A stretch of DNA of 64,000 bases from Dehalococcoidia bacterium (lineage in GTDB: Bacteria; Chloroflexota; Dehalococcoidia; Lucifugimonadales; UBA2985): contig OZ253588.1 in NCBI GenBank assembly GCA_965263185.1, positions 1,153,454 to 1,217,453 on the forward strand. The letters run 5' to 3'. The position numbers and the translations under genes were made by a program. Below are positions 2,588 through 62,847 of the stretch, in pieces (position 1 is the stretch's first letter; each line of letters starts with the position of its first letter). The notes beneath the pieces were generated by a model, which was not told the DNA's origin, ran no database searches, and saw only the letters and a program-made list of their open reading frames with translations.

Positions 2588-2744
2588 GCGTCAATTCTAC
2601 AGCATCGCGTAACGCCGCGCGGATATTCCCGGATATGTCTGGTGAAGACGGGCCGCTTGGGCTACAATGGGCGGTATACCGGCCCCGGAAAGACGCCGGG
2701 GCGTCTCTGACCTCCGACAGCGAGGGAGAGCAAGGGGGTAATCC

Positions 2745-3389
2745 ATGACAATCCATGAGTCCGGCGCAAAGCTGGTTCCCGTCACCGTGTGGTACGACTA
2801 CATTTGACCCTGGTGCTACATTGGCCTGGCCAGGTTGGACCAGCTAGAGCGGGAATTTCCACTGGACATCACCTATAAGACCTTCTATCTCAGGCCGGAC
2901 ACGCCTCCGGATGGCATTGTACGCGCGCCGAGGGAGGGCGAACAGCCGGGAGCGCCCCTCACGGGCCACATCGGCGAGGTGGCGGAGGAGGCCGGGCTTG
3001 TCATGAAGCGCGCGCCCCTCACTCCCAACAGCCGTCTGTCCTTTGAGGCATCCGAGTTCGCCAAGGACAAGGGCGTTTTTGAGCCTTTCCACAGGGCGTG
3101 CTACCGCGCCTTATGGGAAGACGGCGCCAACTTGGGCCTGCTTTCGGAGCTTCAGCATCTGGGGGAGCAGGTGGGCCTGGACCCTGCGGAGATGAAGGAA
3201 CGCCTGGACGCGGGCTACTACACCGCCCAGGCTCAGGCCCAGTACGAGGAGGCTATCTCCGTAGGCGTGCAGGGCATACCCTCCTTCATCATAGGGAGGT
3301 ACTTCTTCTCAGGCGCTCAGCCCTACGAGCTTTTCAAGAAGGTGGCCGATATGGCGCAGAAGGAGGGCAACTCCGAAGGGGAAGGCTGA
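2745..3389 (+). CDS. DsbA/FrnE-like thiol:disulfide oxidoreductase, putative selenoprotein (Sec at TGA 2805-2807)
   Basis: The ORF track starts at TTG 2835, which removes the redox motif. Reading the same frame upstream from ATG 2745 (GGGGGT SD-like) gives MTIHESGAKLVPVTVWYDYI-TGA-PWCYIGLARLDQ, i.e. UPWC where FrnE/DsbA proteins have CPWC. The C-terminal GVQGIPSFIIG is typical of DsbA. Confidence 0.7.
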
Positions 3390-3712: not shown

Positions 3713-4087
3713 TTAAGCGAACCAGATGCCGAGGTACTTGGTGAACCAGAATAGGCCGGCGTATGTGGCTGCGCCCGACGCCATTAGGACGATCAGCATG
3801 CGGCGGTATTGATATGCGCCACGTACGTTGCAGACTCCGCGGCCGCGCAGAAACAGGATGACAGCCAACGCCGCTATGCCGAGTCCGGTTGCCCTAAAGT
3901 ACCAACCGTAAGTGTAGTAGAGAGTGTCCCCAAGCGTCACCGCTTCGGCAGCGGTCGCTACGCCCAGCAATGCCAACACTACCGGCGATACGCAGCAAGT
4001 GATGGCGACCAGACCCGAAGCCACACCCACTAGGACTCCCCTTCTCAGAGACCTGTTCGCTGCCTCAGGCGCCGCGTTTTCAGACAT
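3713..4087 (-). CDS. Small 3-TM membrane protein with vicinal Cys in TM1 (MerT/MerF-like architecture)
   Basis: AITCCVSPVVLALLG resembles MerT ACCLGPLVLIALG. It has three hydrophobic segments and one further Cys in the loop. Assignment is by architecture only. Confidence 0.45.
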   Translation of the reverse strand: MSENAAPEAANRSLRRGVLVGVASGLVAITCCVSPVVLALLGVATAAEAVTLGDTLYYTYGWYFRATGLGIAALAVILFLRGRGVCNVRGAYQYRRMLIVLMASGAATYAGLFWFTKYLGIWFA

Positions 4088-6236: not shown

Positions 6237-6312
6237 CCTGCCTCCGCATCAAGCGCGGGGCAAGCTCCGTACTTGATACGTGGGTGAGTGGGTCGAACCA
6301 AATGAGCGTGGG
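6237..6312. repeat. Intergenic modular repeat (CCGTACTTGATACG hairpin module plus GTCGAACC module)
   Basis: atcaagcgcggggcaagctccgtacttgatacgtgggtgag..gtcgaacc shares modules with the sites at 9.2, 15.0, 25.1, 31.7 and 62.9 kb. Boundaries are approximate. Confidence 0.6.
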
Positions 6313-7849: not shown

Positions 7850-9157
7850 ATGGAAATGGACGTTAACAGGGGTCTGCCCTATATGCTGAGCGTAGAAGAG
7901 GCTCAGGCCAGGATTCTGGGCATGTTCCGTACCCTGGAGTCGGAAAGGAAACCCCTGCTGGATGCCTTGGGCCAGGTACTGGCCGAGGACGTGGTATCCA
8001 CGTTGGATATTCCTCCCCTGACCAACTCCGCTATGGACGGGTATGCCGTGTGTTACGAAGCCATTGCAGGGGCAACCTACGACAGCCCCAGGGAGCTGCG
8101 GGTCATTGGACACTTGGCTGCGGGCCAGCTTCCTGAGCAGGAGGTGTCCGGCGTGAACGCGGTGCGCATAATGACCGGCGCTCCAATACCCTCCGGCGCG
8201 GACACGGTCGTGCCCTTTGAGGAGACGGACGAGTTCGAGAGGAAGGGCATGGGCATGGGCCCCCTGGACATAACGGAGATAATGGTCAGAACGGACGTTC
8301 CAAGAGCAGCAAACCTGCGGCCCGCCGGTCAGGACGTGCAAAAGGGTCAGATGGTACTGGAGAAAGGCGCTCTCCTGCGCCCTTCAGAGATAGGAGTGCT
8401 GGCATCCCTTGGCCGTGACGCGGTGGAGGTGACGCGCCGCCCGGTGGTGGCGGTCATAGCCACCGGGGATGAGCTTTTGGAGCCTGGAGAGCCCGCCGCC
8501 GCCGGCAAGATCTACAATAGCAACAGCTACAGTGTAGCGGCGGCCGTCCTTCGCTACGGCGGGATTCCCAGGATGCTGGGCATAGCCGGGGACAACCTGG
8601 AGTCGATGAACGCCAAGCTGGAGGAAGGGCTGACGGCGGATATGCTGTTGACCTCCGCCGGGGTGTCCAGGGGGGACTACGATATTGTAAAGGACGTGCT
8701 GGCCAGCCGCGGGGAGATCGACTTCTGGTCGGTCAGAATGAGGCCGGCAAAGCCCCTGGCATTTGGGGTTTTTCCTGGTCCGGGAGGCAGGAAAGTCCCC
8801 CACATTGGTCTGCCGGGGAACCCGGTGAGCGCGCTGGTCGCCTTTGAGGAGATGGTGCGTCCCGCCATCCTGAAGATGCAGGGGCGCACAGACCTTGGAA
8901 AGCCTGTTGTGAGAGCGGCGCTGGAGGACGACATCGTCAATGGCGATGAGCGGAGGGTGTACGCCAGGGCGGTTATTACCCGTAAAGACGGGCGCTACTA
9001 CGCCCGCTTGACGGGAGACCAGGGGTCCGGGGTGCTCACCTCAATGGCGCTGGCTAACGGTCTGGCCATATGCCCGGAGGACGTTCCGGTGATGAAGGCG
9101 GGTGAGGAGGTGGATGTCCAGATGCTGGACTGGCCGGAGGACGCGGGGCAGCGCTGA
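7850..9157 (+). CDS. moeA: Molybdopterin molybdenumtransferase MoeA
   Basis: SVEEAQARIL, PLTNSAMDGYAV, GDELLEPG, TSAGVSRGDYD and GLPGNPVSALV motifs. AGGAGGGTGA lies upstream of the ATG. Confidence 0.9.
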   Translation: MEMDVNRGLPYMLSVEEAQARILGMFRTLESERKPLLDALGQVLAEDVVSTLDIPPLTNSAMDGYAVCYEAIAGATYDSPRELRVIGHLAAGQLPEQEVSGVNAVRIMTGAPIPSGADTVVPFEETDEFERKGMGMGPLDITEIMVRTDVPRAANLRPAGQDVQKGQMVLEKGALLRPSEIGVLASLGRDAVEVTRRPVVAVIATGDELLEPGEPAAAGKIYNSNSYSVAAAVLRYGGIPRMLGIAGDNLESMNAKLEEGLTADMLLTSAGVSRGDYDIVKDVLASRGEIDFWSVRMRPAKPLAFGVFPGPGGRKVPHIGLPGNPVSALVAFEEMVRPAILKMQGRTDLGKPVVRAALEDDIVNGDERRVYARAVITRKDGRYYARLTGDQGSGVLTSMALANGLAICPEDVPVMKAGEEVDVQMLDWPEDAGQR

Positions 9158-9159
9158 GG

Positions 9160-9245
9160 CCGGACTACACGGGCATCGTGGGTGGGGGTCCCGCTCACCC
9201 ACGTATCAAGTACGGCGCAGGCTCTGAGCCTGTCGAATGGCGTGG
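9160..9245. repeat. Intergenic modular repeat
   Basis: cgtatcaagtacggcgcaggctctgagcctgtcgaa carries the same modules as the other repeat sites. Confidence 0.6.
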
Positions 9246-14431: not shown

Positions 14432-14976
14432 AGGGCCCTTCCTTTGACGACGATGAGCCGCAGGGCCCCGGACTCCACCTGAGGGGCGGCCTGGACGGCC
14501 GCGGCCTCAGGATAGCGATAGTCGCCGCCAGGTTCAACCGCTTCGTCACATCCAGACTGGTAGAGGGCGCACGCGAGGCTCTCATATCCCACGGCATTGC
14601 GGAGAATGACCTGGTTGTTACCTGGGTTCCCGGCTCTTTTGAGGCGCCGTTGGTGGCTCTGGAGATGGCCAGGACCGGGGAATGGGACGCCCTGGTCTGC
14701 CTGGGCGCCGTCATTCGAGGGGAGACCGCCCACTTCGATTACGTGGCCAGAGAGGCGGCGCGTGGCATTGCCTCCGCCTCCGTAGAGACGGGAGTCCCCA
14801 TGTCATTCGGCATCCTAACCACGTACACGGAAGCGCAGGCGCTGGAGCGCGCAGGCGGCAAATCCGGCAACAAGGGCTACGACGCGGCCCTTGCAGCCAT
14901 AGAGATGGCCAACCTGATGCGCCTTCTGCGGCGGACAGAGGACCGGCAGCCCCCGGCGCCCCCCTCGCGCCCTTAG
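14428..14976 (+). CDS. ribH: 6,7-dimethyl-8-ribityllumazine synthase
   Basis: IAIVAARFNRFVTSRLVEGA, VPGSFE and GAVIRGETAHFDYV motifs. It overlaps the ribBA stop. Confidence 0.9.
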   Translation: MKGPSFDDDEPQGPGLHLRGGLDGRGLRIAIVAARFNRFVTSRLVEGAREALISHGIAENDLVVTWVPGSFEAPLVALEMARTGEWDALVCLGAVIRGETAHFDYVAREAARGIASASVETGVPMSFGILTTYTEAQALERAGGKSGNKGYDAALAAIEMANLMRLLRRTEDRQPPAPPSRP

Positions 14977-15345
14977 ACAAGCTCAGAGCCTGCCCCGTAC
15001 TTGATACGGGGGTGAGCGGACAGATAGATCCCGCTCGTGTGCCAACCCCCGCCCGTTCGTGGTGAGCCTGTCGAACCAGGTGAGCGGGGCAACCATCCAC
15101 AGTCATTCCTGCGTAGGGAGGAATCCAGGGCGGGGGCGGTGGAGGCCCCTCCCCCCTCTGGATGACCGCGTTCGCGGGCATGACGACGTGACCCCTCTTT
15201 TCATAGATGAGCTTGTCGAACCAGGTGAGCGGGCGAATGGGGTGGCCCCCTGCGTTCCGCTCACGCCCTTCGACACGCTCAGGACGAGCGGAACCCCCGC
15301 GTCCCTTGAAAGCCCGCGGCTGTGATAGTAAGCTGTCTTGCAGAA
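14977..15345. repeat. Cluster of modular intergenic repeats (four or more modules, both orientations)
   Basis: Contains cagagcctgccccgtacttgatacggggg; ttcgtggtgagcctgtcgaaccaggtgagcgg (also at 15207-15240); ggatgaccgcgttcgcgggcatgac; and cccttcgacacgctcaggacgagcgg. Spurious ORFs here read VSLSNQVSG / LTWFDKL, as at the other sites. Confidence 0.75.
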
Positions 15346-17558: not shown

Positions 17559-17901
17559 ATGCACATAACGAGCATAGCTAGTCAAGACATACCACAGATA
17601 GACGGTATTGATTTCCAATTTCATAAGCGGGTGAACCTGTTCATCGGCCCAAACGCGTCCGGCAAGAGTACCATCCTGCGGGCTATAATGCATTTGCGCT
17701 CCTTGGCGCTAGCGTCGGGGGGATCTACTATTCGCTCATTAGAAGCCAGAGGTATCTTTAACTGGGGCGATAGCACTACATATGTGGATGGAATCAACTA
17801 CCCCAGCCCTGGGGGTGGTCTGTCATTTGGTATGGAAGCAAGCGATGATTGGCCGCGAGATGACAAAGGGGGCATCAGATGGACCGAAGTGCCTTTCTTA
17901 T
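17559..17901 (+). pseudogene. ptuA: Septu-like PtuA ATPase, N-terminal fragment (gene split by IS1380-family insertion)
   Basis: Walker A motif LFIGPNASGKST. The reading frame runs straight into the IS left end at 17902. Confidence 0.7.
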
Positions 17902-19606
17902 CCCGAATCCACCGAAGGACACGGATGGGCGGCGTGAGGACCGGAGAAGGGGGATGAGAGAGCTACAGGGGAGATGGCCTGGGCTCGATTGGGGTAGATG
18001 GGAGGTCGGCGGAGGGACTTCAGTCACCGCACAGGCCCCCAATGGCCGTCTGCGGGAGCTGGGATGCGGGGGATGGCAAGAGAATAGGCAGCAGGGAACT
18101 CCCGCGGAGCTGGTTGGTGCGAGTTGGCGGGGACGTTGGGTCAGTGGCGGAGGGCGCCGTCAGGCTGGGAGTGGAATGGCTCGCAGCCGGGCCAGGGCGC
18201 GACTGAACTGGGTATCCCAGGGCCAGCGCCGGGGAAGATGCAGGGTCAATCGGCGTGCCGAGCGAGTGAGCCGTCCGGCCAAGGCGAAGACCCGTCGTCT
18301 GAGGGTCTTGGTGGTCACGATCTGCTCACCCAGGCCGATGCGGGCTGTCCAGCGGGCCAGGTTGTGTGCCATCACCTGTACCGCCAGCCAGGCTCCGTTG
18401 GCGGCGAAGCGGCCGGACGGCATGTGGTTCAGTCCGACACCGTACTTGAGGTCGCGTATCGCATTCTCGATCTCGGCGTGACGGCGATGATCAGCCTCCA
18501 GTTCGAGCATCTCCCCATCGCGGTCGGTGATGAAGCCGTGATAGCTGTAGGTGGCGAAGAGGGCCAACTGGGAACCGGGCGTGGGTTTCACCCGCCGGAC
18601 GATGAGCCGCACCGGCGCGGCGTCGGGCTCACTCTGGAAGGGGATATAGGTGGTCTCTGCCACATCGGCGGCGCCGTCCATCCAGTAGGGAATGGGAGTC
18701 CAGTCCTCTTCTGGTATGGCCTCGATGACATTGTGCAGGCTTTTGTGCTGGCGGATGGTGATGGAGAAGCGGACATCCATCTTGCGGCAGACGGATACCA
18801 CGCTATGAGCGTAGAAGCCGCTGTCGGCCCGCATCGTGAGTTGTCCCCTGGCCCCGGCGAAGCGCACCCGCCCCACCGTCTCACGCAGGAAGTGGGCGGC
18901 GCCGCGGGCGGTGTTGGCCCGGCCCTCGCGCAGCCGGGCCATCAGCACGTCTCCGGTTCCGGCGGCGACGGCCAGCAGCGGGTGATAGCCCCGCTGACCG
19001 GTGTAACCATGGTGGCGCGCCCCTTCCTTGGCCAGTCCATAGGTCTCGCAGATGGTGGAGTCCAGGTCGATGGTCAGGGGCCCGTCGCCGGGTCCGGCCC
19101 CGGCAGCCCAGGCCCGGGCCAGCAACTCCCGGCTAACCCGGTCCAGTTGGCGGACATGGCCCCACCTGAAGCTGCGCAGGAAGGCGCCCAGGGTGGAGGG
19201 AGCCTTAGCCGTGAAACCGAGAACGCGGGCGGTCCCGCCGGCGCGTAGCACATCGGCGTCGTCGATGCAGTCGCCACCGGCCAACGCGGAGGCCACCAGC
19301 GTCATCATCTTGTCACCGGTGTTGGCTCTGCCTTTTGCATGGCCCAGGTCCAGGTGCCGGTCAACCAGTTGGGGCAGGCCAAGGCGCAGGGCCAGGGTGG
19401 ACGGAAGAATCAGCCCGGCATTGGCCACCAGGCGGTGATCATCGAAGGCGATGCGGATGCGGTCGGGTTGGTGGCGTGGTAGCATCTATTGGGTGCTCCT
19501 TTTCCGGGACTGGTTTGCTGTTACAAAACCATTATCCCAGATTCAGAGGAGCACCCTTTGGCCACTTCAGGACGCTGACCCGACGCCCTCCTTCGGTGGA
19601 TTCGGG
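17902..19606 (-). mobile_element. IS1380-family insertion sequence, copy 1 (1705 bp)
   Basis: Perfect 17-bp terminal inverted repeats CCCGAATCCACCGAAGG. 5-bp direct target duplication CTTAT (17897-17901 and 19607-19611). Near-identical second copy at 54921-56625. Confidence 0.9.
18160..19485 (-). CDS. IS1380-family DDE transposase
   Basis: 441 aa. The C-terminal HRRHAEIENAIRDLKYGVGLNHMPSGRFAANGAWL block is typical of IS1380 transposases. Confidence 0.85.
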   Translation of the reverse strand: MLPRHQPDRIRIAFDDHRLVANAGLILPSTLALRLGLPQLVDRHLDLGHAKGRANTGDKMMTLVASALAGGDCIDDADVLRAGGTARVLGFTAKAPSTLGAFLRSFRWGHVRQLDRVSRELLARAWAAGAGPGDGPLTIDLDSTICETYGLAKEGARHHGYTGQRGYHPLLAVAAGTGDVLMARLREGRANTARGAAHFLRETVGRVRFAGARGQLTMRADSGFYAHSVVSVCRKMDVRFSITIRQHKSLHNVIEAIPEEDWTPIPYWMDGAADVAETTYIPFQSEPDAAPVRLIVRRVKPTPGSQLALFATYSYHGFITDRDGEMLELEADHRRHAEIENAIRDLKYGVGLNHMPSGRFAANGAWLAVQVMAHNLARWTARIGLGEQIVTTKTLRRRVFALAGRLTRSARRLTLHLPRRWPWDTQFSRALARLRAIPLPA

Positions 19607-20618
19607 CTTATATATACCCTCAACTCGGATCAGCCTCCCGGTCCAGCATGTTTTTGAGCCTCACATTTTTGACCAAGCAATAGAGGAGCCGGAAGATGTA
19701 GACGCAGATACAATACTGAAGCGCCTGTTTGACACTGAATCCGGTATCTTTGACGGCCGGTACGTGGAGTTGGCTATAGACCGGCTTCGCAAGGGAATGG
19801 TTGGGAATATAATCCAGCAGAACAACCTCAGTCGTGCTTTAGAGGACGCGTATACCTGTGCCTCGCGCATTTGTTCAGAGGTAATAAGCGATCGTTCCCC
19901 GCATCCCTACGTTGACCAGTATGAGACCGAGGGGACTAAGAGGACTGTTCATCATGCCATGGGGATAGGGACAAGCGACGTTTCTTGGAATACAGAGCAG
20001 CCTCTGTACGCAGGCGCTTTGAGCTCGGGGACCCAGGGAACTCTCCTGTGGGTCTACGCCCTAGCTCTCAAGATAGGAGAGCACTATGGGTTCGACGAGT
20101 ATTGGTGGGGCGGACAAGATAAGCCTGCAATCCTACTGATTGACGAGATAGAGAACCACCTGCATCCCACCTGGCAGCGGAGGGTTATACCGAAGCTGCT
20201 GGAGCATTTTCCCGGCTTGCAGATATTCGCTACAACCCACTCCCCCTTCGTGGTGGCCGGCCTGAAGGCCTGGCAGGTCCACCTGCTGAAGCGCGACGAA
20301 AACGGACGCGTCACCGCCACGACCTACCCCGAGGACGTTATCGGCTGGACGGCGGACGAGATCCTGCGGAACATGATGGGCGTTGAGGAGCCTACTGACC
20401 AACTCACAGTCGACCGCGCTAACCGGCTGCGGCAGCTCAGGGAAAAGGAAACGCTGACTCCCGAGGAAGAGTCCGAGTTGAACGAGCTGCGACGCCAGGT
20501 AAACGAGGATTTGTTGTCCAAGGGCGGCCCACTGGAAGCTCAGAGGGAGCGTTACGCGGACTTGATGGAGCGATTCCTGCTTTCCCGACAATCTGATCTC
20601 ACTCAAGAAGGAGATTAG
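19607..20618 (+). pseudogene. ptuA: Septu-like PtuA ATPase, C-terminal fragment
   Basis: ABC-type signature LSSGTQG, Walker B ILLIDEIENHLHP and H-loop ATTHSP. Deleting the IS and one TSD copy joins it in frame to 17559-17901 (..TEVPFLYIPSTRISLP..). Confidence 0.7.
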
Positions 20619-25074: not shown

Positions 25075-25385
25075 TCCACCAACTCACACCCCGAATCAAG
25101 TATGGAGCAGGCTATGAGCGGGGTAGTTTGGGTTTCCGCTCATCCCCGTATCAAGTACGGGGCAGGCTCTGAGCGTGTCGAAGGGCATGAGGGGAACGGG
25201 ACGGCCCTCCCGCTTACCTGGTTCGACAAGCTCACCATGAGCGGAGCAACCAACCACCATCATTCCTGTGTCTGGGCGATGCGATGTAGGGGCGGTTCGC
25301 GAACCGCCCCTACTCATATGGTTCGACCGGCTCACCATGAGCGGGAGGAGGTTGGCATGAGCGTTAAGGGCGGAAGGTCTATGCA
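25075..25385. repeat. Cluster of modular intergenic repeats
   Basis: Two copies of the cgtatcaagta(c/t)gg module, two GTTCGAC..CTCACCATGAGCGG modules, and CATTCCTGTGTCTGGGCGATGC plus the 28-bp palindrome GTAGGGGCGGTTCGCGAACCGCCCCTAC (25286-25313). Confidence 0.75.
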
Positions 25386-31554: not shown

Positions 31555-31865
31555 GCAGCCGTCCCGCGGGGTATGTTTGAGGCGTGGCCCGCTCATGCCC
31601 CCCGCCCGTTCGTGGTGAGCTTGTCGAACCATATGAGCGGTATGCGGCAGTACGTAGTCATGCCCGCGGACGCGGGCATCCAGAGGGGGGAGGAGGGATG
31701 GATTCCCGCTCGTAGGCGGGAATGACGGGGGAGGGTTGCCCCCGCTGACGCCCTTCGACACGCTCAGAGCCTGCCCCGTACTTGATAGGGGATGAGCGGA
31801 CAGATGGACTCCGTTCGTGGTGAGCTTGTCGAACCATATGAGCGGGTCAACGCTTGCCCCTGCGG
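31555..31865. repeat. Cluster of modular intergenic repeats
   Basis: ttcgtggtgagcttgtcgaaccatatgagcgg occurs twice, plus the catgcccgcggacgcgggcat hairpin and cccttcgacacgctcagagcctgccccgtacttgatagggg. Confidence 0.75.
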
Positions 31866-31938: not shown

Positions 31939-32796
31939 ATGACCCCAAGCGACTATCCTCGCCCGGACCTCTTGGTGGAGTCGGAATGGCTTGAGGCTCA
32001 CCTGAACGACCCAGACCTGCGAATCATCGACTGCGACCAGTACGACCTGTACACCCGCGCCCACATCGCGAACGCCGTGGGCATCCCGGAGCACAACTTC
32101 ATCAAGAATCCGAACTTCCCCAGCGATCCCACTGGCTATCCCTTGGTGGCGTCGGCGGAGGACTTTGCGCGTTTGATGGGCAGAATGGGTATTGGGAACG
32201 ACACGACTGTTGTGGCCTACGACGCCGGTGGAGGAACACGCGCCGCCCGGCTGTGGTGGGTTCTCAACTACTACGGGCACACCAAGGCCATGATGCTCAA
32301 CGGCGGCTGGAAGAAGTGGCACGACGAGGGTCGGCCCACGTCGACGGACGCGCTGAGGCCACCGGAGGCCTCTTTCACCTCTACGGAAGTCCCCGACTTG
32401 GTCTGCCTGATGGACTACGGAGTCTCGTGCGTCGGGGACCCGGACACGGTGTTCCTGGACGTGCGATCCGAAGACGAGTGGACGGGCGCCGGCGCACGCG
32501 GCAACAAGCGGGCAGGCCACGTGCCAGGAGCCGTACACCTGGAGTGGCTCAACTTCGTCACCAGCGACAAGCACCAGACCGTCAAGCCCGCCGCAGAACT
32601 GCGAGCGATGCTGGAGGAGCGCGGCGTCACCCCGGACAAGCAGGTGATCACCTATTGACAGGGAGGAATCCGTGCGGCGCACGGCGCGTTCGTTCTCACC
32701 CTAATGGGATACAACCGGGTACGTAACTATGACGGCTCCATGGGAGAGTGGGCCAACCGAGACCACACTCCTCTGATGGTGGAAGGCGCTGGCTGA
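31939..32796 (+). CDS. Two-domain rhodanese-like sulfurtransferase, putative selenoprotein (Sec at TGA 32656-32658)
   Basis: The ORF track stops at 32658 (..KQVITY*). Reading through gives [44 protein letters not shown], so the TGA sits at the catalytic Cys of the CxxGxR loop. The true stop is TGA 32794-32796. Confidence 0.75.
32670..32684 (+). promoter_or_regulatory. Candidate bacterial SECIS hairpin
   Basis: CCGTGC-GGC-GCACGG begins 12 nt after the in-frame TGA and has Gs in the apical loop. Confidence 0.45.
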
Positions 32797-33995: not shown

Positions 33996-36920
33996 ATGGT
34001 AGTGAGCAGGGTAGCAGGAGCAGTCTTGGCGGTTCTAATGCTCGTGGCTGCCCTGGCGTGCCAGGAGCAGGAACCTACCAGCACTCCGGACACCCAAGCC
34101 ACCATAGACGCCAGCGTGGCCGCTACCATGGCAGCAATGCCAACCGCTTTGCCTACGCCGACTCCTACACCTACGAGTACCCCGACTCCCACCCCAATCC
34201 ATGCACCTTCCAGCATCTCCACGCCCACACCCTTTCTCATGCCGACTAGAACCCCTTCCCCGACTCCTAATCCTGTACATACAGTGACTCCCGATACAAG
34301 TAAATTTACTGCCATCAACAGCGGCGCCTGGCAAACCTGCGCGCTTCGAGCTGACGGCTCTCCAGTTTGCTGGGGTGACAATTATTCCGGCCAGACATCG
34401 CCGCCCACGGACGAGAGGTTCACCGCGGTCAGCAGTGGTAGCTCACACATCTGCGCGCTCCGCGCCGACGGCTCCCCCGTCTGCTGGGGGGACGATGGTT
34501 CGGGCCAAGCGTCGCCCCCCATGGACGAGAGGTTCACTGCAATCAGCAGTGGGAATTATCACACTTGCGCACTCCGCGCCGACGGCTCTCCGGTCTGCTG
34601 GGGCAGTGATTTCTACGATCAGATACCGCGGCCGTCGGACGAGAAATTTGCCGCCATAAGCAGTGGCGATGACCACACTTGCGCGCTTCGCGCCGACGGC
34701 TCTCCCGTCTGCTGGGGCAATAATGATGAACGCCAAACGTCTCCACCTACGAACGAGACGTTTACATCCATCAGCAGCGGTGCTAATCACACCTGCGCAC
34801 TCCGCACCGACGGTACTCCCGTCTGCTGGGGCAGTGATTCCGATGGCCAAGCGTCGCCTCCTCCAGGCAAGAAGTTCGCCGTCATCAGCAGCGGACGTTA
34901 CCACTCCTGCGCGCTCCTAGCCGACGGATCTCCTGTCTGCTGGGGAAGCAACGCCTACCGTGGTGAATATGTAGGTCAGGCGTCACCGCCTGAAGACGTG
35001 GGACTTACTGCCATCAGCAGCGGTGGTTGGCACACTTGCGCGCTACGCGCCGATGGCTCTTCCGTCTGCTGGGGGTCGGATTTGGAAGGAAAAGCCTCAC
35101 CACCCGGGGGCGAGTTCATCGACAATACTCGCGGCCAAAGTTTCACCTGTGCAATCCGAGCCGACGGATCGCCCGTTTGCTGGACAGATGATAGCGATGG
35201 TCAAGCTCTGTTTCCAACTGGTGAAAATATCAGCGTCATCAGTAGTGGCGCAAATTACACTTGCGCACTCCGTTCCGACGGGTTGCCTGTCTGCTGGGGC
35301 AAAGAAGGTTCCCGGATAGCGTCGCCTCCCACGAATGAGAGGTTCATCGCCATCAGCAGCGGCTTGATCCACACCTGCGCTCTGCGGGCCGACGGCTCTC
35401 CGGTCTGTTGGGGTAGCAACTCGGGCTTATTGGGCAACTACATCGGCCAGGCGTCGCCTCCCTTGGGCGAGAAATTCACCTCCATAAGCAGTGGCTGGTT
35501 CCACACCTGCGCTCTGCGCGCCGATGGCTCTCCGGTCTGCTGGGGTGGCGATGAGGATGGCGAAGCGTCGCCTCCCTTGGGCGAGAAATTCACCTCCATA
35601 AGCAGTGGCGCTCTCCACACCTGCGCATTGCGCTCCGACGGCTCTCCGGTCTGTTGGGGGTCCAATCTAGATGTGTTAGAAAGTGAATTCCTCGGACAGG
35701 CTTCACCACCCGCAAATGAGGAGTTCACCACCATCAGCGCGGGAGACTTCCACACCTGCGCACTCCGTAGCGACGGCTCTCCCGTTTGCTGGGGCAGCAA
35801 CTTGGGCTATCTCACCGGCTACTCCGGCCAAGCATCTCCTCCAACGGACGAGTCGTTTGCTTCCATCAGTAGTGGCGAATATCATACCTGCGCACTCCGC
35901 GCGGATGGCTCCCCTGTATGCTGGGGCAAGTATAGAGATTTCGGAAACATGATCAGCCAGGCGTCGCTGCCAGCGGACGAGAAGTTCACTTCCATTAGCA
36001 GTGGGAGCGCTTATGCATGCGGATTGCGTTCCGACGGCTACCTTGTCTGCTGGGGCAGCAACCTGGACCATCTCTCCAACTTCGTCGGCAAAGCATTACC
36101 TCCCACAGGTGAGAGCTTTACTTCCATTAGCAGCGGAGAATTCCACACCTGCGCACTCCGAGCCGACGGCTCGCCCGTCTGCTGGGGTAGTGACTTTTAC
36201 GGCCAATCGTCACCTCCCGAGGGTGAGAAATTCACTGCGATAAGCAGCGACTTTTCACACACATGTGCGATCAGTGTCGACGGCTCACCCGTCTGCTGGG
36301 GAATCAATTCATTTGGCCAGGCGTCGCCCCCCACATGGGAAAGGTTCACCGCCATCAGTAGCGGCCTTTCTCACACCTGCGCCCTCCGGGCTGACGGCTT
36401 CCCCGTCTGCTGGGGTTTTTGGAGTGATGAGTTTGGTCGTATATCACCTGTGTCGCCGCCCACAGGCGAGGACTTCACCGTCATCAGCACCGGAACTCTG
36501 CACACCTGCGCGCTCCGCGCTGACGGATCTCCTGTTTGCTGGGGCGACAATGAGAACGGCCAGGCATCGCCGCCTCCCAGCGAGAAGTTTATTGCTATCA
36601 GCAGCGGAGAATCCCACACTTGCGCGCTGCGCGCTGACGGCTCACCCGTCTGCTGGGGTGATAATGAGAACGGCCAGGCATCGCCGCCTCCAAACGAAAA
36701 ATTCACTGCCATCAGCAGTGGGGATAGACACAGCTGCGCACTCCGCTCAAACGGTACTCCCGTCTGCTGGGGCAGTAATCTGTTTGGCCAAGCGTCGTAT
36801 CCCGCGGGCCAGAAGCTGATTGTCATCAGCTGTGGAGATAGTCACACGTGCGCGCTACGCCCAAACGGTACCCCAGTCTGCTGGGGCTGGGATAATGATG
36901 GCCAAGCGTCGCCGCCTTAG
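33996..36920 (+). CDS. Secreted lipoprotein with about 22 short RCC1-like repeats
   Basis: Signal peptide plus lipobox (LVAALAC), a PT-rich linker, then 22 repeats of about 37-43 aa of the form F(T/A)xISSGxxHTCALRxDGSPVCWGxxxxGQASPP. Confidence 0.8.
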   Translation: MVVSRVAGAVLAVLMLVAALACQEQEPTSTPDTQATIDASVAATMAAMPTALPTPTPTPTSTPTPTPIHAPSSISTPTPFLMPTRTPSPTPNPVHTVTPDTSKFTAINSGAWQTCALRADGSPVCWGDNYSGQTSPPTDERFTAVSSGSSHICALRADGSPVCWGDDGSGQASPPMDERFTAISSGNYHTCALRADGSPVCWGSDFYDQIPRPSDEKFAAISSGDDHTCALRADGSPVCWGNNDERQTSPPTNETFTSISSGANHTCALRTDGTPVCWGSDSDGQASPPPGKKFAVISSGRYHSCALLADGSPVCWGSNAYRGEYVGQASPPEDVGLTAISSGGWHTCALRADGSSVCWGSDLEGKASPPGGEFIDNTRGQSFTCAIRADGSPVCWTDDSDGQALFPTGENISVISSGANYTCALRSDGLPVCWGKEGSRIASPPTNERFIAISSGLIHTCALRADGSPVCWGSNSGLLGNYIGQASPPLGEKFTSISSGWFHTCALRADGSPVCWGGDEDGEASPPLGEKFTSISSGALHTCALRSDGSPVCWGSNLDVLESEFLGQASPPANEEFTTISAGDFHTCALRSDGSPVCWGSNLGYLTGYSGQASPPTDESFASISSGEYHTCALRADGSPVCWGKYRDFGNMISQASLPADEKFTSISSGSAYACGLRSDGYLVCWGSNLDHLSNFVGKALPPTGESFTSISSGEFHTCALRADGSPVCWGSDFYGQSSPPEGEKFTAISSDFSHTCAISVDGSPVCWGINSFGQASPPTWERFTAISSGLSHTCALRADGFPVCWGFWSDEFGRISPVSPPTGEDFTVISTGTLHTCALRADGSPVCWGDNENGQASPPPSEKFIAISSGESHTCALRADGSPVCWGDNENGQASPPPNEKFTAISSGDRHSCALRSNGTPVCWGSNLFGQASYPAGQKLIVISCGDSHTCALRPNGTPVCWGWDNDGQASPP

Positions 36921-41670: not shown

Positions 41671-42031
<361 letters not shown>

Positions 42032-42131: not shown

Positions 42132-43502
42132 TCACTCCGGGCGCCCGCTCTCCTGTCTCAGGGAAAGCTGGACGGAGTCGTCTCCCACAGAGACGTGAGA
42201 GACCAACGCCCTGAGAACACGGCCGGCGGCCTCGCCTTCCAGTGAGTCCCAATTTTGCAGCAGAGACGACATGTCTCCGGTGGCAAGCGCTTCCTCCAGT
42301 GGGCTTGGAGATGAGGGGCCACCCTCCGGGCCGGCTCTCTGAGCGTCCAACTCTGCAATGGTTGATCGGAGCCGCCCCAAAGACGTGATGCCGGCGGCGG
42401 CGCTCTCAAGCGCTCTCAGGAACTGGGGGCTGAGAGGCCGGTCGCCCGTTTCTGCGTTGTGTTGGAGGCTGGACGGGTCCAGCCTGGATTCCCCGCTCTC
42501 CAGCGCCTCTTTGGCCCGGTCGAGCGCCCGGCGCTCCAGGGCGTCGGCGCGCCAGGTATGATAGCGGCACATTCCCTGGTTGGTCCTGGACTGGCACTGG
42601 TAGTAGCGGTACTGTCCCTCAACGCGAGAGCCGTCCTTGCGCTTCCACCCCTGACGCCTGCTCACCCCAATCATGCGATTCCCGCAAGAGGCGCAGTATG
42701 CCAGCCCCGATAGGAGGAACGGCTGGACTGCGCGAGTCCTGCGCCTCTTCCTCCCTTGCTCCATCTTGTCCTGGGCCAATCTGAAGTCGTCTCGGCCTAT
42801 GATTGCCGCGTGGTTGCTGGGAACCCTCATCCCAAAGCGGGTGTAGGTGCCAATGTAGGCGCGATTTCGCAGGATGTCCCTTATAGTGACTATGCTCCAT
42901 CCCCTGCCGCCCCTGGTTTGGACCCCTCTCTCGTTCAGGCTGCGTACTATGCGCCTCATGCCCAGTTTCTCATTGTTGTACATGTCGAATATGAGCCCCA
43001 CTGCGGCGCTTTCATCCGGCACAACCTCAAGCCTGCGATCGGAGCCAATCCTGTATCCAAAAGGAGGCTTGCCAAGCCCCTCGCCTCGCATGGCCTTGGC
43101 GATCATGGCCTCCTTGATACGCTCCCCCCTGGGCTTGCTCCCTCTCCCCCTGTTCCAATGCTTCAGGGCTTGCTGAAGCGGGTCCGGAAACTCGTCGTCG
43201 CTGCATTTGACCTCGGCCCTCAGGGCGTCCAGCTCCAGAACGCGGCGCACGGAGGACTCCAGGGTGTCTCCAAGGTGTTGGGGGCCGGCGATGATAACCA
43301 GGAACTCAGCTTTGGACTGCTTGAGGTAGTCCAGCATTTCCCCGTAACGGAGGCGTCCGCCGTCGGGGTCGTCTTCTGCAAAGGTCGCTACTTGCTGGTG
43401 GCCGTGCTTTTGGCAGTAGCTAGAGAATGCCTCCTGCTGGCCAAGCAGCGCGGTCTCTCCCTGTGCCCCGCTCTGGACGGAGAAGTAACCTATAGCCCTC
43501 AT
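42132..43502 (-). CDS. Large-serine-recombinase-like protein (recombinase and zinc-ribbon domains; N-terminal catalytic motif appears degenerate)
   Basis: The central GKPPFGYRI..VPDESAAVGLIFDMY..GMRRIVRSLNERGVQTRGGRGWSIVTIRDILRNRAYIGT and CASCGNRM..YYQC are typical. The N-terminus reads GYFSVQSGAQ where resolvases have YxRVSTxxQ. Confidence 0.7.
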   Translation of the reverse strand: MRAIGYFSVQSGAQGETALLGQQEAFSSYCQKHGHQQVATFAEDDPDGGRLRYGEMLDYLKQSKAEFLVIIAGPQHLGDTLESSVRRVLELDALRAEVKCSDDEFPDPLQQALKHWNRGRGSKPRGERIKEAMIAKAMRGEGLGKPPFGYRIGSDRRLEVVPDESAAVGLIFDMYNNEKLGMRRIVRSLNERGVQTRGGRGWSIVTIRDILRNRAYIGTYTRFGMRVPSNHAAIIGRDDFRLAQDKMEQGRKRRRTRAVQPFLLSGLAYCASCGNRMIGVSRRQGWKRKDGSRVEGQYRYYQCQSRTNQGMCRYHTWRADALERRALDRAKEALESGESRLDPSSLQHNAETGDRPLSPQFLRALESAAAGITSLGRLRSTIAELDAQRAGPEGGPSSPSPLEEALATGDMSSLLQNWDSLEGEAAGRVLRALVSHVSVGDDSVQLSLRQESGRPE

Positions 43503-54524: not shown

Positions 54525-54920
54525 TACTGATGCCTTTTGCAAGTTGTCTGCGAGCGGATTGTTCTTCAAGGCGATTGATCTCCTTGGGGCAGATATCACC
54601 GAATGTGCTCGGTTACCGGCCCTTCCGTACATGCTAAAGAAGGGCCGATTGAGGACTATGTATGGCCCTGCAGTATGTGACGAATTGATGCCGATTGCTC
54701 ATAGTATGCCCATCGTGGATTGCACTAACAACGTCTGGCTGGACAAGTTGACGTTGGTGCAATCAATAGACCCTGGTGAGGCTCAACTCTTCGCAATGGG
54801 CGCTGCGACCGGGTTTCTAGTGATGACCGGAGACAAACGTGCACTTCGTGAGCTAAAGAGTATTCCCGATTTCCCCCAATTGCTTTCCGGACGTATAGTC
54901 GTATTGGAGACTGTTCTAAT
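54508..54920 (+). pseudogene. PIN-like domain protein, N-terminal fragment (split by IS1380-family insertion)
   Basis: MKLLVDTDAFCKL.., DPGEAQLFA and LVMTGDKRALREL give the D/E/D pattern of PIN-like nucleases. It overlaps the upstream gene by 17 nt, and the frame runs into the IS at 54921. Confidence 0.55.
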
Positions 54921-56625
54921 CCCGAATCCACCGAAGGACACGGATGGGCGGCGTGAGGACCGGAGAAGGGGGATGAGAGAGCTACAGGGGAGATGGCCTG
55001 GGCTCGATTGGGGTAGATGGGAGGTCGGCGGAGGGACTTCAGTCACCGCACAGGCCCCCAATGGCCGTCTGCGGGAGCTGGGATGCGGGGGATGGCAAGA
55101 GAATAGGCAGCAGGGAACTCCCGCGGAGCTGGTTGGTGCGAGTTGGCGGGGACGTTGGGTCAGTGGCGGAGGGCGCCGTCAGGCTGGGAGTGGAATGGCT
55201 CGCAGCCGGGCCAGGGCGCGACTGAACTGGGTATCCCAGGGCCAGCGCCGGGGAAGATGCAGGGTCAATCGGCGTGCCGAGCGAGTGAGCCGTCCGGCCA
55301 AGGCGAAGACCCGTCGTCTGAGGGTCTTGGTGGTCACGATCTGCTCACCCAGGCCGATGCGGGCTGTCCAGCGGGCCAGGTTGTGTGCCATCACCTGTAC
55401 CGCCAGCCAGGCTCCGTTGGCGGCGAAGCGGCCGGACGGCATGTGGTTCAGTCCGACACCGTACTTGAGGTCGCGTATCGCATTCTCGATCTCGGCGTGA
55501 CGGCGATGATCAGCCTCCAGTTCGAGCATCTCCCCATCGCGGTCGGTGATGAAGCCGTGATAGCTGTAGGTGGCGAAGAGGGCCAACTGGGAACCGGGCG
55601 TGGGCTTCACCCGCCGGACGATGAGCCGCACCGGCGCGGCGTCGGGCTCACTCTGGAAGGGGATATAGGTGGTCTCTGCCACATCGGCGGCGCCGTCCAT
55701 CCAGTAGGGAATGGGAGTCCAGTCCTCTTCTGGTATGGCCTCGATGACATTGTGCAGGCTTTTGTGCTGGCGGATGGTGATGGAGAAGCGGACATCCATC
55801 TTGCGGCAGACGGATACCACGCTATGAGCGTAGAAGCCGCTGTCGGCCCGCATCGTGAGTTGTCCCCTGGCCCCGCCGTAGCGAACCCGGCTCACCGTTT
55901 CACGCAGGAAGTGCGCGGCGCCGCGGGCGGTGTTGGCCCGGCCCTCCCGCAGCCGGGCCAGCAGCACGTCTCCGGTTCCGGCGGCGACGGCCAGCAGCGG
56001 GTGATAGCCCCGCACACCGGTGTAGCCGTGGTGGCGTGCGCCCTCCTTGGCCAGTCCGTAGGTCTCGCAGATGGTGGAGTCCAGGTCGATGGTCAGGGGC
56101 CCGTCGCCTGGTCCGGCCCCAGCCGCCCAGGCCCGGGCCAGCAACTCGCGGCTCACCCGGTCCAGTTGGCGGACATGGCCCCACCTGAAGCTGCGCAGGA
56201 AGGCGCCCAGGGTGGAGGGAGCCTTAGCCGTGAAACCGAGAACGCGGGCGATCCCCCCGGCGCGTAGCACATCGGCGTCGTCGATGCAGTCGCCACCGGC
56301 CAACGCGGAGGCCACCAGCGTCATCATCTTGTCACCGGTGTTGGCTCTGCCTTTTGCATGGCCCAGGTCCAGGCGCCGGTCAACCAGTTGGGGCAGGCCA
56401 AGGCGCAGGGCCAGGGTGGACGGAAGAATCAGCCCGGCATTGGCCACCAGGCGGTGATCATCGAAGGCGATGCGGATGCGGTCGGGTTGGTGGCGTGGTA
56501 GCATCTATTGGGTGCTCCTTTTCCGGGACTGGTTTGCTGTTACAAAACCATTATCCCAGATTCAGAGGAGCACCCTTTGGCCACTTCAGGACGCTGACCC
56601 GACGCCCTCCTTCGGTGGATTCGGG
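54921..56625 (-). mobile_element. IS1380-family insertion sequence, copy 2 (1705 bp)
   Basis: Same 17-bp terminal IRs as copy 1. 5-bp target duplication CTAAT (54916-54920 and 56626-56630). Confidence 0.9.
55179..56504 (-). CDS. IS1380-family DDE transposase
   Basis: 441 aa. Differs from the copy-1 protein at a handful of positions clustered in the N-terminal half. Confidence 0.85.
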   Translation of the reverse strand: MLPRHQPDRIRIAFDDHRLVANAGLILPSTLALRLGLPQLVDRRLDLGHAKGRANTGDKMMTLVASALAGGDCIDDADVLRAGGIARVLGFTAKAPSTLGAFLRSFRWGHVRQLDRVSRELLARAWAAGAGPGDGPLTIDLDSTICETYGLAKEGARHHGYTGVRGYHPLLAVAAGTGDVLLARLREGRANTARGAAHFLRETVSRVRYGGARGQLTMRADSGFYAHSVVSVCRKMDVRFSITIRQHKSLHNVIEAIPEEDWTPIPYWMDGAADVAETTYIPFQSEPDAAPVRLIVRRVKPTPGSQLALFATYSYHGFITDRDGEMLELEADHRRHAEIENAIRDLKYGVGLNHMPSGRFAANGAWLAVQVMAHNLARWTARIGLGEQIVTTKTLRRRVFALAGRLTRSARRLTLHLPRRWPWDTQFSRALARLRAIPLPA

Positions 56626-56829
56626 CTAATTGCTCTTTGTGATCGGTTCGGGCCTGACAAGATACGCCAATGCATTCAGGGACTGGCCGCATGGGACATA
56701 GTCGCCCGGAATAGTTTCTCCTCTGGCAACACCGATCCTCGGGATGGCCTGAACTCGTATTACAATGACCTCGAGGTCGAAGTCGACCCGTTAGTCCTGT
56801 GGAATCCTAGATCGCAAGGGAACTCATGA
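56626..56829 (+). pseudogene. PIN-like domain protein, C-terminal fragment
   Basis: Removing the IS and one TSD copy restores ..VVLETVLIALCDRFGPDKIRQ.. in frame. The stop overlaps the next start (ATGA). Confidence 0.55.
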
Positions 56830-62388: not shown

Positions 62389-62847
62389 ATGCCGGCAGAG
62401 GTAGGAGACAAGGCGCCAGATTTCACACTCCGCTCCCACACGGGTGAAGACGTCACCCTGAGCCAGTACCTTGGACAGAAGACGGTGGTGCTCCAGACCC
62501 ACGTTCTATCCTTCACAGGCGGTTGAACGCACCAGTGCTCCTCATTCCGGCTGGATAACCGCCGGTACGAGGAGCGCGACGCCCAGGTCCTGGGCATGAG
62601 CGTTGATAGCGCGCCAACTCAGAGGGCTTTCGCCACAGGGTTGGGAAACCTCCCATACCCGTTGCTGGCCGACTTCCACCCCAAGGGACAGGTGTCGGAA
62701 CTCTTCGGCATTTACAACGAGGAGCGGGGCGTAACAAGGCGGGCCGTGATCATCATAGACAAAGAGGGTGTGATAAGGTACAAGAGGATTTACACCGAGG
62801 GCCTGCCGGACTCCAAGGAGATTCTGGAGGAGTTGGACAGGCTGTAG
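62389..62847 (+). CDS. Peroxiredoxin (AhpC/TSA, BCP-like), putative selenoprotein (Sec at TGA 62524-62526)
   Basis: ATG 62389 follows CAGGAGGT. Translation is MPAEVGDKAPDFTLRSHTGEDVTLSQYLGQKTVVLQTHVLSFTGG-TGA-THQCSSF, and it continues in frame into ORF 62596-62847 (..RAVIIIDKEGVIRY). The TGA is at the peroxidatic Cys (TxxC) position. Confidence 0.75.
62535..62577 (+). promoter_or_regulatory. Candidate bacterial SECIS hairpin
   Basis: The 7-bp stem GCTCCTC/GAGGAGC encloses the 5-bp stem CCGGC/GCCGG with a 9-nt loop TGGATAACC. It starts about 10 nt after the TGA. Confidence 0.5.

Follow-up and report, generated by a model that had tools for sequence, protein, structure and literature searches.

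The DNA studied here (hereafter the window) is a stretch of 64,000 nucleotides (nt) from contig OZ253588.1 of a Dehalococcoidia bacterium. Near its left end, at positions 2745-3389 of the forward strand, it contains a gene of the DsbA/FrnE type interrupted by a single in-frame TGA. We consider, with a probability of about 0.85, that this gene encodes a genuine selenocysteine (Sec)-containing FrnE/DsbA-like oxidoreductase (PF01323, COG2761) with the active site U21-P-W-C24. That the inserted residue is Sec, and which of the hairpins downstream acts as the selenocysteine insertion sequence (SECIS), we infer from the sequence.

The TGA at 2805-2807 is the sole stop codon in the frame from the ATG at 2745-2747 until the TGA at 3387-3389. 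The ATG is preceded, at a distance of 5 nt, by the Shine-Dalgarno-like site AAGGGGGT, and GGAGG-like sites also occur close upstream of the equivalent ATG in the orthologous loci L001, L004 and L005. Translation from this ATG yields MTIHESGAKLVPVTVWYDYI, then the TGA, then PWCYIGLARLDQLEREF and so on (VTVWYDYI-TGA-PWCYIGLARLD). The protein ends in ...KEGNSEGEG at residue 214, with no Cys at this end. The open reading frame (ORF) reported by the ORF finder starts at TTG 2835, ends at 3389 and encodes 184 amino acids (aa), without strand beta-1 and without the redox motif. The public gene call P0001 is the same ORF except for one residue, and most of the closest protein clusters likewise begin here or shortly downstream.

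When the TGA is read through, residues 13-199 match positions 2-188 of the 191 positions of the Pfam DSBA profile (PF01323) with 96.5 bits, the cut-off being 25.6 bits. Thus the profile of the DsbA-like family (FrnE subgroup COG2761) is matched across the whole domain. The truncated ORF scores 58.8 bits, still above the threshold, and covers profile positions 31-188 only. A CxxC-type motif follows strand beta-1 and stands where helix alpha-1 begins; the first position of this motif is a TGA codon, not a Cys codon.

The best match among solved structures is FrnE, a DsbA-like disulfide oxidoreductase from the cytoplasm of Deinococcus radiodurans (5cnw, E=1.2e-19, residues 8-196). Here the FrnE segment VDIWSDIACPWCYIGKRRF is aligned with VTVWYDYI-U-PWCYIGLARL, and the TGA corresponds to Cys22, the first Cys of CPWC. 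The same column holds the leading Cys of CPWC in P0009, the Cys-containing orthologue (65% identical), as well as in FrnE-like proteins of 35-39% identity (P0065, P0067, P0084, P0120).

The AlphaFold model of P0009 stands in for the window protein. It has a mean pLDDT (predicted local distance difference test) of 93.7, and its motif (residues 24-27) comes after a strand (14-20) and opens a helix (25-40). In a Foldseek search with this model, FrnE entries and SCO1869 (3gl5) were on top, with E-values from 1e-15 to 7e-14 and template modelling (TM) scores of 0.76-0.78. 2-Hydroxychromene-2-carboxylate (HCCA) isomerase, glutathione S-transferase (GST) kappa and periplasmic DsbA scored at about 1e-8 or weaker. 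The predicted fold is a thioredoxin fold with an inserted helical domain, nearer to FrnE and SCO1869 than to periplasmic DsbA or to HCCA isomerase and GST-kappa. The enzyme is probably cytoplasmic, because no signal peptide is visible in its N-terminus, and by analogy with FrnE it may serve as a reductase or isomerase.

A third cysteine, Cys119 (FHRAC119YRA, approximately 3099-3101), is at least 90% conserved inside the Sec-containing clade. In those distant FrnE-like homologues of the Cys type that were examined, another residue occupies the corresponding position (e.g. Val in P0065).

Homologous DNA was taken from species-representative genomes, JGI/ENA metagenomes and contigs encoding database matches. 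The codon in question is TGA in 40 of the 42 homologous loci covering the site, with 31 distinct 66-nt contexts. In the remaining two it is TGT; these are L031, which is of the P0009 type, and the distant locus L013. The TGA loci come from at least seven Dehalococcoidia metagenome-assembled genomes (MAGs), one SAR202 MAG and many marine metagenome contigs, and the TGA form reaches down to proteins of 51-53% identity (L039, L040). At the nucleotide level, 3.8 kb of the window show 97% identity with the Dehalococcoidia MAG chromosome OZ252024.1; the values are 95% for OZ244924.1 and 99.8% for an ENA contig of 387 kb. The window thus comes from a marine Dehalococcoidia MAG, and it belongs to the same species-level group as OZ252024.1.

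Codons around the TGA encode the same amino acids and vary synonymously (tac/tat, att/ata/atc, ccc/cct/cca/ccg, tgc/tgt). Upstream, codons 12-20, that is, the nine codons before the TGA, are kept as amino acids, as are all downstream codons, and four different codons are used at each of the positions Pro12-Val-Thr-Val15. Since the amino acids are conserved with free synonymous change, the upstream segment is translated in this frame. The conservation of TGA amid synonymous variation indicates that its occurrence is not due to chance and that selection maintains it.

These data bear out most of an earlier note on this DNA, made from the sequence without database searches, which had described the gene as a DsbA/FrnE-like one with a probable Sec at the CxxC position. 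Its coordinates and its reading of the frame from ATG 2745, with the in-frame TGA and the truncated ORF from TTG 2835, are exact. The TGA column is indeed the Cys column of P0009, of the FrnE-like proteins and of FrnE itself, and the upstream extension is conserved as a protein, with varying synonymous codons, and completes the DSBA domain. The remark that standard gene callers truncate such genes agrees with the protein databases as well: only two of the 64 best protein clusters reach 90% query coverage, and one of these two shows W at the TGA.

TGA is an ordinary stop codon here. The 58 genes predicted in the window end in TAG (29), TGA (23) or TAA (6), and the DsbA-like gene itself ends in TGA. 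This rules out a genome-wide reassignment of TGA, and therefore decoding at 2805 is local and context-dependent.

The strongest evidence for an RNA element, independent of any structure, is synonymous constraint. Among 33 distinct genes aligned by codon, 32 have CTG for Leu28 and 30 have AGG for Arg30, and the choice of codons for Gly27 and Ala29 is likewise restricted. Elsewhere in these genes, four to six different codons occur at conserved positions for Leu and Arg. Normalised synonymous entropy, compared by the Mann-Whitney test, is lower in codons 22-33 than in the other 52 comparable columns (p = 1.6e-4), and it is lower in codons 27-30 alone than in the rest of the gene (p = 6e-4). The latter codons are located 19-30 nt after the UGA. 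Thus a nucleotide-level element seems to overlap codons 27-30, which is the expected place of a bacterial SECIS.

Bacterial recoding of UGA by SelB and a SECIS is well established, as in fdhF of E. coli, and criteria for bacterial SECIS elements were reportedly formulated by Zhang and Gladyshev (2005, Bioinformatics). Below, bases are numbered from the TGA (positions 1-3), the window coordinate being 2804 + n. The minimum-free-energy (MFE) fold of 2800-2870 (-19 kcal/mol) is a long irregular hairpin with the apical loop CUG at 2826-2828 and the outer stem CUGGU 2810-2814 / ACCAG 2839-2843. Each of the orthologous sequences is able to form a SECIS-like hairpin of suitable size and spacing, with GG opening the apical loop 20-25 nt after the UGA. 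We regard the two hairpins described below, S3 and S2, as putative SECIS elements. At gathering thresholds, no Rfam family matched at this site.

By inspection, the sequences fall into two classes. In class 1, which includes the window, Leu31 is encoded by TTG, TTA or CTG and followed by GAC-CAG. These sequences may fold into hairpin S3, formed by pairs C22-G39 to A28-U32, with bulged A35 and the loop G29-G30-U31. In the window this is CUGGCCA / UGG-A-CCAG, with 7 base pairs (bp), a bulged A at 2839 and the apical loop GGU at 2833-2835. Its energy on its own is -6.6 kcal/mol, and the apical loop follows the UGA at a distance of 25 nt. In the alignment of 16 class-1 sequences, 99.1% of the cells of S3 are paired; L012 and L023 show one compensatory change (C27-G33 to U27-A33), and two further changes are G-U-compatible.

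In class 2, Leu31 is encoded by CTC in most members and S3 is not formed. The candidate hairpin of this class, S2, is formed by pairs U17-A35 to U23-A28, with bulged U32, the loop GGCN and an energy of about -8 to -9 kcal/mol. In 12 class-2 sequences it is paired in 92.9% of cells, and L030 shows one compensatory change (C21-G30 to U21-A30). In the one Cys orthologue compared, S3 is broken in its lower half, and the region folds worse than shuffled sequences (z = +1.39); as this is one sequence, the contrast is anecdotal.

The earlier note had named two stems, CCTGG 2809-2813 / CCAGG 2830-2834 and CTGGT 2810-2814 / ACCAG 2839-2843. Both are present, and the second is part of the MFE fold. However, they are not the best-supported folds, and they show no compensatory change among the orthologues.

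Several observations on folding and on the Sec trait weigh against the proposed interpretation. The stability of 2800-2870 shows no excess over dinucleotide shuffles (z = 0.15) or over synonymous recodings of the same peptide with the codon usage of the window (p = 0.12-0.33); in thermodynamic terms, the structure does not rise above background. RNAalifold applied to all 31 contexts produced almost no consensus (-1.9 kcal/mol), and on this ground one consensus SECIS for all orthologues was rejected. When 28 distinct 48-nt sequences were pooled, no stem exceeded 89% pairing: the values are 88.6% for stem 5-9/26-30 and 78.6% for stem 6-10/35-39 (the two stems of the earlier note), 80.1% for S3 and 82.7% for S2. 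Covariation is thin: the score of S3 is reached by 6 of 500 shuffles, and that of S2, reached by 119 of 500, is not significant. Moreover, the class-specific folds were derived from the same sequences on which they were scored. Finally, selA, selB, selD and tRNA-Sec were found neither within the 64-kb window nor in the fetched loci, and it is an assumption that this organism has the Sec machinery.

The search for this machinery covered the following. Pfam scans of all window ORFs of at least 300 aa and of many smaller ones detected no SelA, SelB or SelD. ARAGORN identified no tRNA-Sec in 25 loci. Approximately 8 kb beyond the right end of the window, accessible via the near-identical contig L045, contain no Sec machinery, and the only Rfam match in the window at gathering thresholds is the RNase P RNA. 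The only ARAGORN hit in the window is a 72-nt tRNA-Tyr(GTA) at 8491-8562 (-), antisense inside the gene for MoeA (7850-9157, +). Bacterial tRNA-Tyr has a long variable arm. This call has none, Rfam reports no tRNA there at the gathering score, and it is probably a false positive.

On the other hand, the Sec trait is documented in the class Dehalococcoidia. The cultured Dehalogenimonas alkenigignens has selC, the genes of Sec synthesis and a Sec-specific elongation factor (PMC4918011). BSepDB, which takes in only species with the Sec pathway, lists two Dehalococcoidia MAGs among its top ten, with 49 and 46 selenoprotein genes (PMC13326102). The suggestion of a Sec-rich proteome in the earlier note is consistent with these counts.

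The same note had mentioned two further genes with the same pattern in the window, and both were found. Read-through genes were detected by a filter based on GC content by codon position; scans for codon bias gave nothing or noise. The first gene (31939-32796, +) encodes a two-domain rhodanese/sulfurtransferase (Pfam 1.2e-38) with TGA 32656-32658 at the position of the active-site Cys, and standard gene calling ends it at 32658. The hairpin CCGUGC-GGC-GCACGG (32670-32684, 6 bp, -8.5 kcal/mol) starts 11 nt after the TGA, and its GGC loop begins 17 nt after the TGA. The gene matches the known rhodanese-related sulfurtransferase UxxG selenoprotein family. The second gene (62389-62847, +) encodes an AhpC/TSA peroxiredoxin (AhpC-TSA, 1.6e-31) with TGA 62524-62526 at the peroxidatic Cys (SFTGG-U-THQC, TxxU). 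Downstream of this TGA lies a very stable hairpin (62535-62577) with -29.4 kcal/mol and z = -5.9; its stability exceeds that of synonymous recodings (p = 0.004). In contig L045, public calls split this peroxiredoxin into pieces of 45 aa and 83 aa. All three read-through genes of the window belong to known selenoprotein families. The read-through candidate 23242 (-) and several others were rejected, being antisense to real genes.

One alternative is that the UGA is decoded as a standard amino acid (Trp, Cys or Gly), via a suppressor or near-cognate tRNA or in response to a signal other than SelB/SECIS. The missing Sec genes in the window and fetched loci, the lack of a canonical SECIS fold common to all orthologues and the unexceptional thermodynamics of the folds would all agree with it. 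One public pipeline has even rendered the codon as W: P0014 (locus L047, 104-739) is a full-length orthologue of 211 aa with Trp at the Sec position (WYDYIWPWC). However, the DNA of L047 has TGA, and the W is an artefact of the translation table: a code in which TGA means Trp was applied to the contig. For this DsbA-like group it is a second type of annotation error. Further, UGA is the normal stop for approximately 40% of the window genes, this one included, so the decoding must be site-specific. All three in-frame UGAs of the window fall on catalytic Cys positions of families with Sec forms, which is a signature of Sec rather than of general suppression, and Dehalococcoidia with the full Sec machinery and large selenoproteomes have been described (PMC4918011, PMC13326102). 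We thus consider insertion of a standard amino acid improbable.

It is more improbable still that the UGA is a true stop, the locus being a pseudogene or an assembly error, or else encoding a 20-residue leader followed by a truncated DsbA-like protein from TTG 2835. ORF finding and nearly all public gene calls do give the truncated form, and this form passes the Pfam threshold. However, TGA in 40 independent loci with 31 distinct sequences is neither an error nor a recent nonsense mutation, and the nine conserved codons before it, with their free synonymous changes, are translated in frame. A product starting at TTG 2835 would have no strand beta-1, no active site and no beginning of helix alpha-1. 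The starts assigned by gene callers vary among the orthologues (M-GLARLD, M-ARLD, M-DQLE, M-EQDF), because each caller took the first start codon after the 'stop'; hence they are first-start-codon artefacts.

If the gene does encode a Sec-containing enzyme, its expression would proceed as follows. Ribosomes would start at ATG 2745. A SECIS hairpin in the mRNA 15-40 nt downstream of UGA 2805 would recruit to this codon a SelB-type elongation factor with Sec-tRNA(Sec), and the core of the recruiting element would be the codon-constrained block GGCCUGGCCAGG at 2823-2834. Sec would be inserted and translation would continue as far as the UGA at 3387, which acts as a normal stop. The selenolate, placed where helix alpha-1 begins, would then attack as the nucleophile in thiol-disulfide exchange, and Cys24 would be the resolving residue.

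The core GGNCUGGCNAGG lies 19-30 nt after the UGA, and its pairing register depends on whether the next codon, for Leu, is TTG or CTC. This suggests a variant of the mechanism that we regard as unlikely: the recoding signal may be not a canonical fixed SECIS hairpin but this near-invariant 12-nt core with two mutually exclusive registers. If so, the SECIS architecture would drift freely around a sequence-specific contact with SelB, or the core would work without a textbook stem-loop. In BSepDB, about 13% of bacterial selenoprotein genes have no canonical SECIS (PMC13326102).

Table 1. Coordinates of the DsbA/FrnE-like gene, its candidate recoding elements and the intergenic repeats in the window.
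Feature	Position	Strand	Basis
Shine-Dalgarno-like AAGGGGGT	2732-2739	+	read directly from the sequence
Full coding sequence, probable DsbA/FrnE-like selenoprotein, 214 residues, Sec = residue 21	2745-3389	+	translation, Pfam, FrnE match, 40 loci
In-frame TGA, proposed Sec codon, first position of U-P-W-C (2805-2816)	2805-2807	+	loci and alignment with Cys forms
GGC CTG GCC AGG, Gly-Leu-Ala-Arg, codons 27-30	2823-2834	+	synonymous constraint; core of every candidate SECIS fold
SECIS-like hairpin S3, best-supported in the window	2826-2843	+	pairing in class-1 orthologues
Alternative long irregular hairpin (MFE fold), excludes S3	2810-2843	+	folding of 2800-2870
Truncated ORF from TTG	2835-3389	+	standard gene calling
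Intergenic repeats	6250-6292, 9178-9244, 14959-15020, 15046-15087, 15191-15232, 15240-15282		
Intergenic repeats, continued	25123-25211, 31599-31640, 31652-31693, 31740-31791, 31804-31845		

Directly downstream of the DsbA-like gene there is a gene (3713-4087, -) for a predicted membrane protein of 124 aa with no Pfam match. Its first hydrophobic segment carries a paired-Cys motif (VAITCCVSPVVLALLG) and resembles the first transmembrane helix of MerT-type transporters. The neighbour is different in other genomes (Fic in L001, NUDIX in L004), and therefore the linkage to the DsbA-like gene is not conserved.

The window contains several repeated elements. An insertion sequence of approximately 1.7 kb is present in two copies, 17895-19608 and 54914-56630, whose first 300 nt were compared and are 100% identical. 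Each copy encodes a DDE_Tnp_1_4 transposase of 441 aa (18160-19485 and 55179-56504, both on the minus strand). Intergenic repeats of 40-65 nt (Table 1) occur in both orientations, are 75-93% alike and share the core ...CCGTACTTGATACGGGGGTGAGCGG... / ...GCAGGCTCTGAGC.TGTCGAA... They are clustered between genes, look like repetitive extragenic palindromic (REP) elements or miniature inverted-repeat transposable elements (MITEs), and appear in ORF scans as the recurring pseudo-peptide 'YQVRGRL*ACRRA'. The gene at 33996-36920 (+) encodes a 974-aa protein of RCC1 repeats (Pfam RCC1_2, 16 stretches), and its DNA is a diverged tandem array with a period of 114 nt and about 21 copies. The class A bacterial RNase P RNA is at 41673-42024 (-, 316 bits). 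A large serine recombinase with the Recombinase domain and a zinc ribbon is encoded at 42132-43502 (-), on the same strand and approximately 100 nt off the 5' side of the RNase P RNA; it could mark an integrated element.

The finding as such is already known: the first description of the family dates from 2005, and a catalogue of 2026 includes Dehalococcoidia MAGs rich in selenoproteins. As the earlier note had stated, FrnE/DsbA-like proteins are a reported bacterial selenoprotein family (PMC1088965, PMC5029168, PMC13188914). The 'DsbA-like protein' (COG2761, UxxC, nine sequences) was introduced as a new selenoprotein family in the study of the Sargasso Sea by Zhang, Fomenko and Gladyshev in 2005, which also reported a rhodanese-related sulfurtransferase and a Sec-containing Prx (TxxU) (PMC1088965). 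The survey of Peng et al. (2016) counted 45 DsbA-like selenoproteins in 41 organisms (PMC5029168), and a review of 2026 lists 'DsbA-like protein form 1, PF01323, UxxC' and 'rhodanese form 2, UxxG' (PMC13188914).

The value of the present analysis lies in the correction of annotation. Public entries for this orthologous group are almost all truncated at the N-terminus and devoid of the active site, and the truncated entries are stored as 'DsbA family' or 'hypothetical'; at least one entry has Trp at the Sec codon. Functional and redox inferences for marine Dehalococcoidia and SAR202 MAGs that start from standard gene calls systematically miss catalytic residues. In addition, the 31 distinct UGA contexts of the orthologues are a small collection that documents SECIS variation, and models of bacterial SECIS elements could be tested on it.

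Compared with FrnE of D. radiodurans (5cnw, 5co3, 5coh, 5xwh) and SCO1869 (3gl5), the window protein has the x-PWC active site at the same position and, to judge from the P0009 model (TM 0.77), the same thioredoxin fold, into which a helical domain is inserted; the G-[IV]-P loops of the window protein and of FrnE align as well. On the other hand, the identity to FrnE is only about 29-30%, and Sec would stand in place of Cys22. FrnE is also longer, with 260 aa against 214 aa here, and the alignment ends at residue 210 of its chain. The C-terminal tail that follows in FrnE holds a second CxxxxC motif and has no counterpart in the window protein. It belongs to the Deinococcus protein and is not typical of COG2761 overall.

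The candidate recoding signal resembles the SelB/SECIS system of the E. coli fdhF type in several respects. The hairpin is part of the coding region and immediately follows the UGA, its apical loop starts with G residues approximately 20-25 nt after the UGA, and the stem has a one-base bulge. The difference is that the orthologues considered here seem to use two pairing registers on one 12-nt core.

The closest known system is the DsbA-like selenoprotein family itself. The window gene shares with it the Pfam family and COG, the UxxC motif with the proposed Sec in place of the first Cys, the origin from marine uncultured bacteria, a UGA directly followed by a putative bacterial SECIS, and widespread Cys homologues. 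In these respects no substantive difference was found, and family, motif and habitat all suggest that the gene described here belongs to the same orthologous group.

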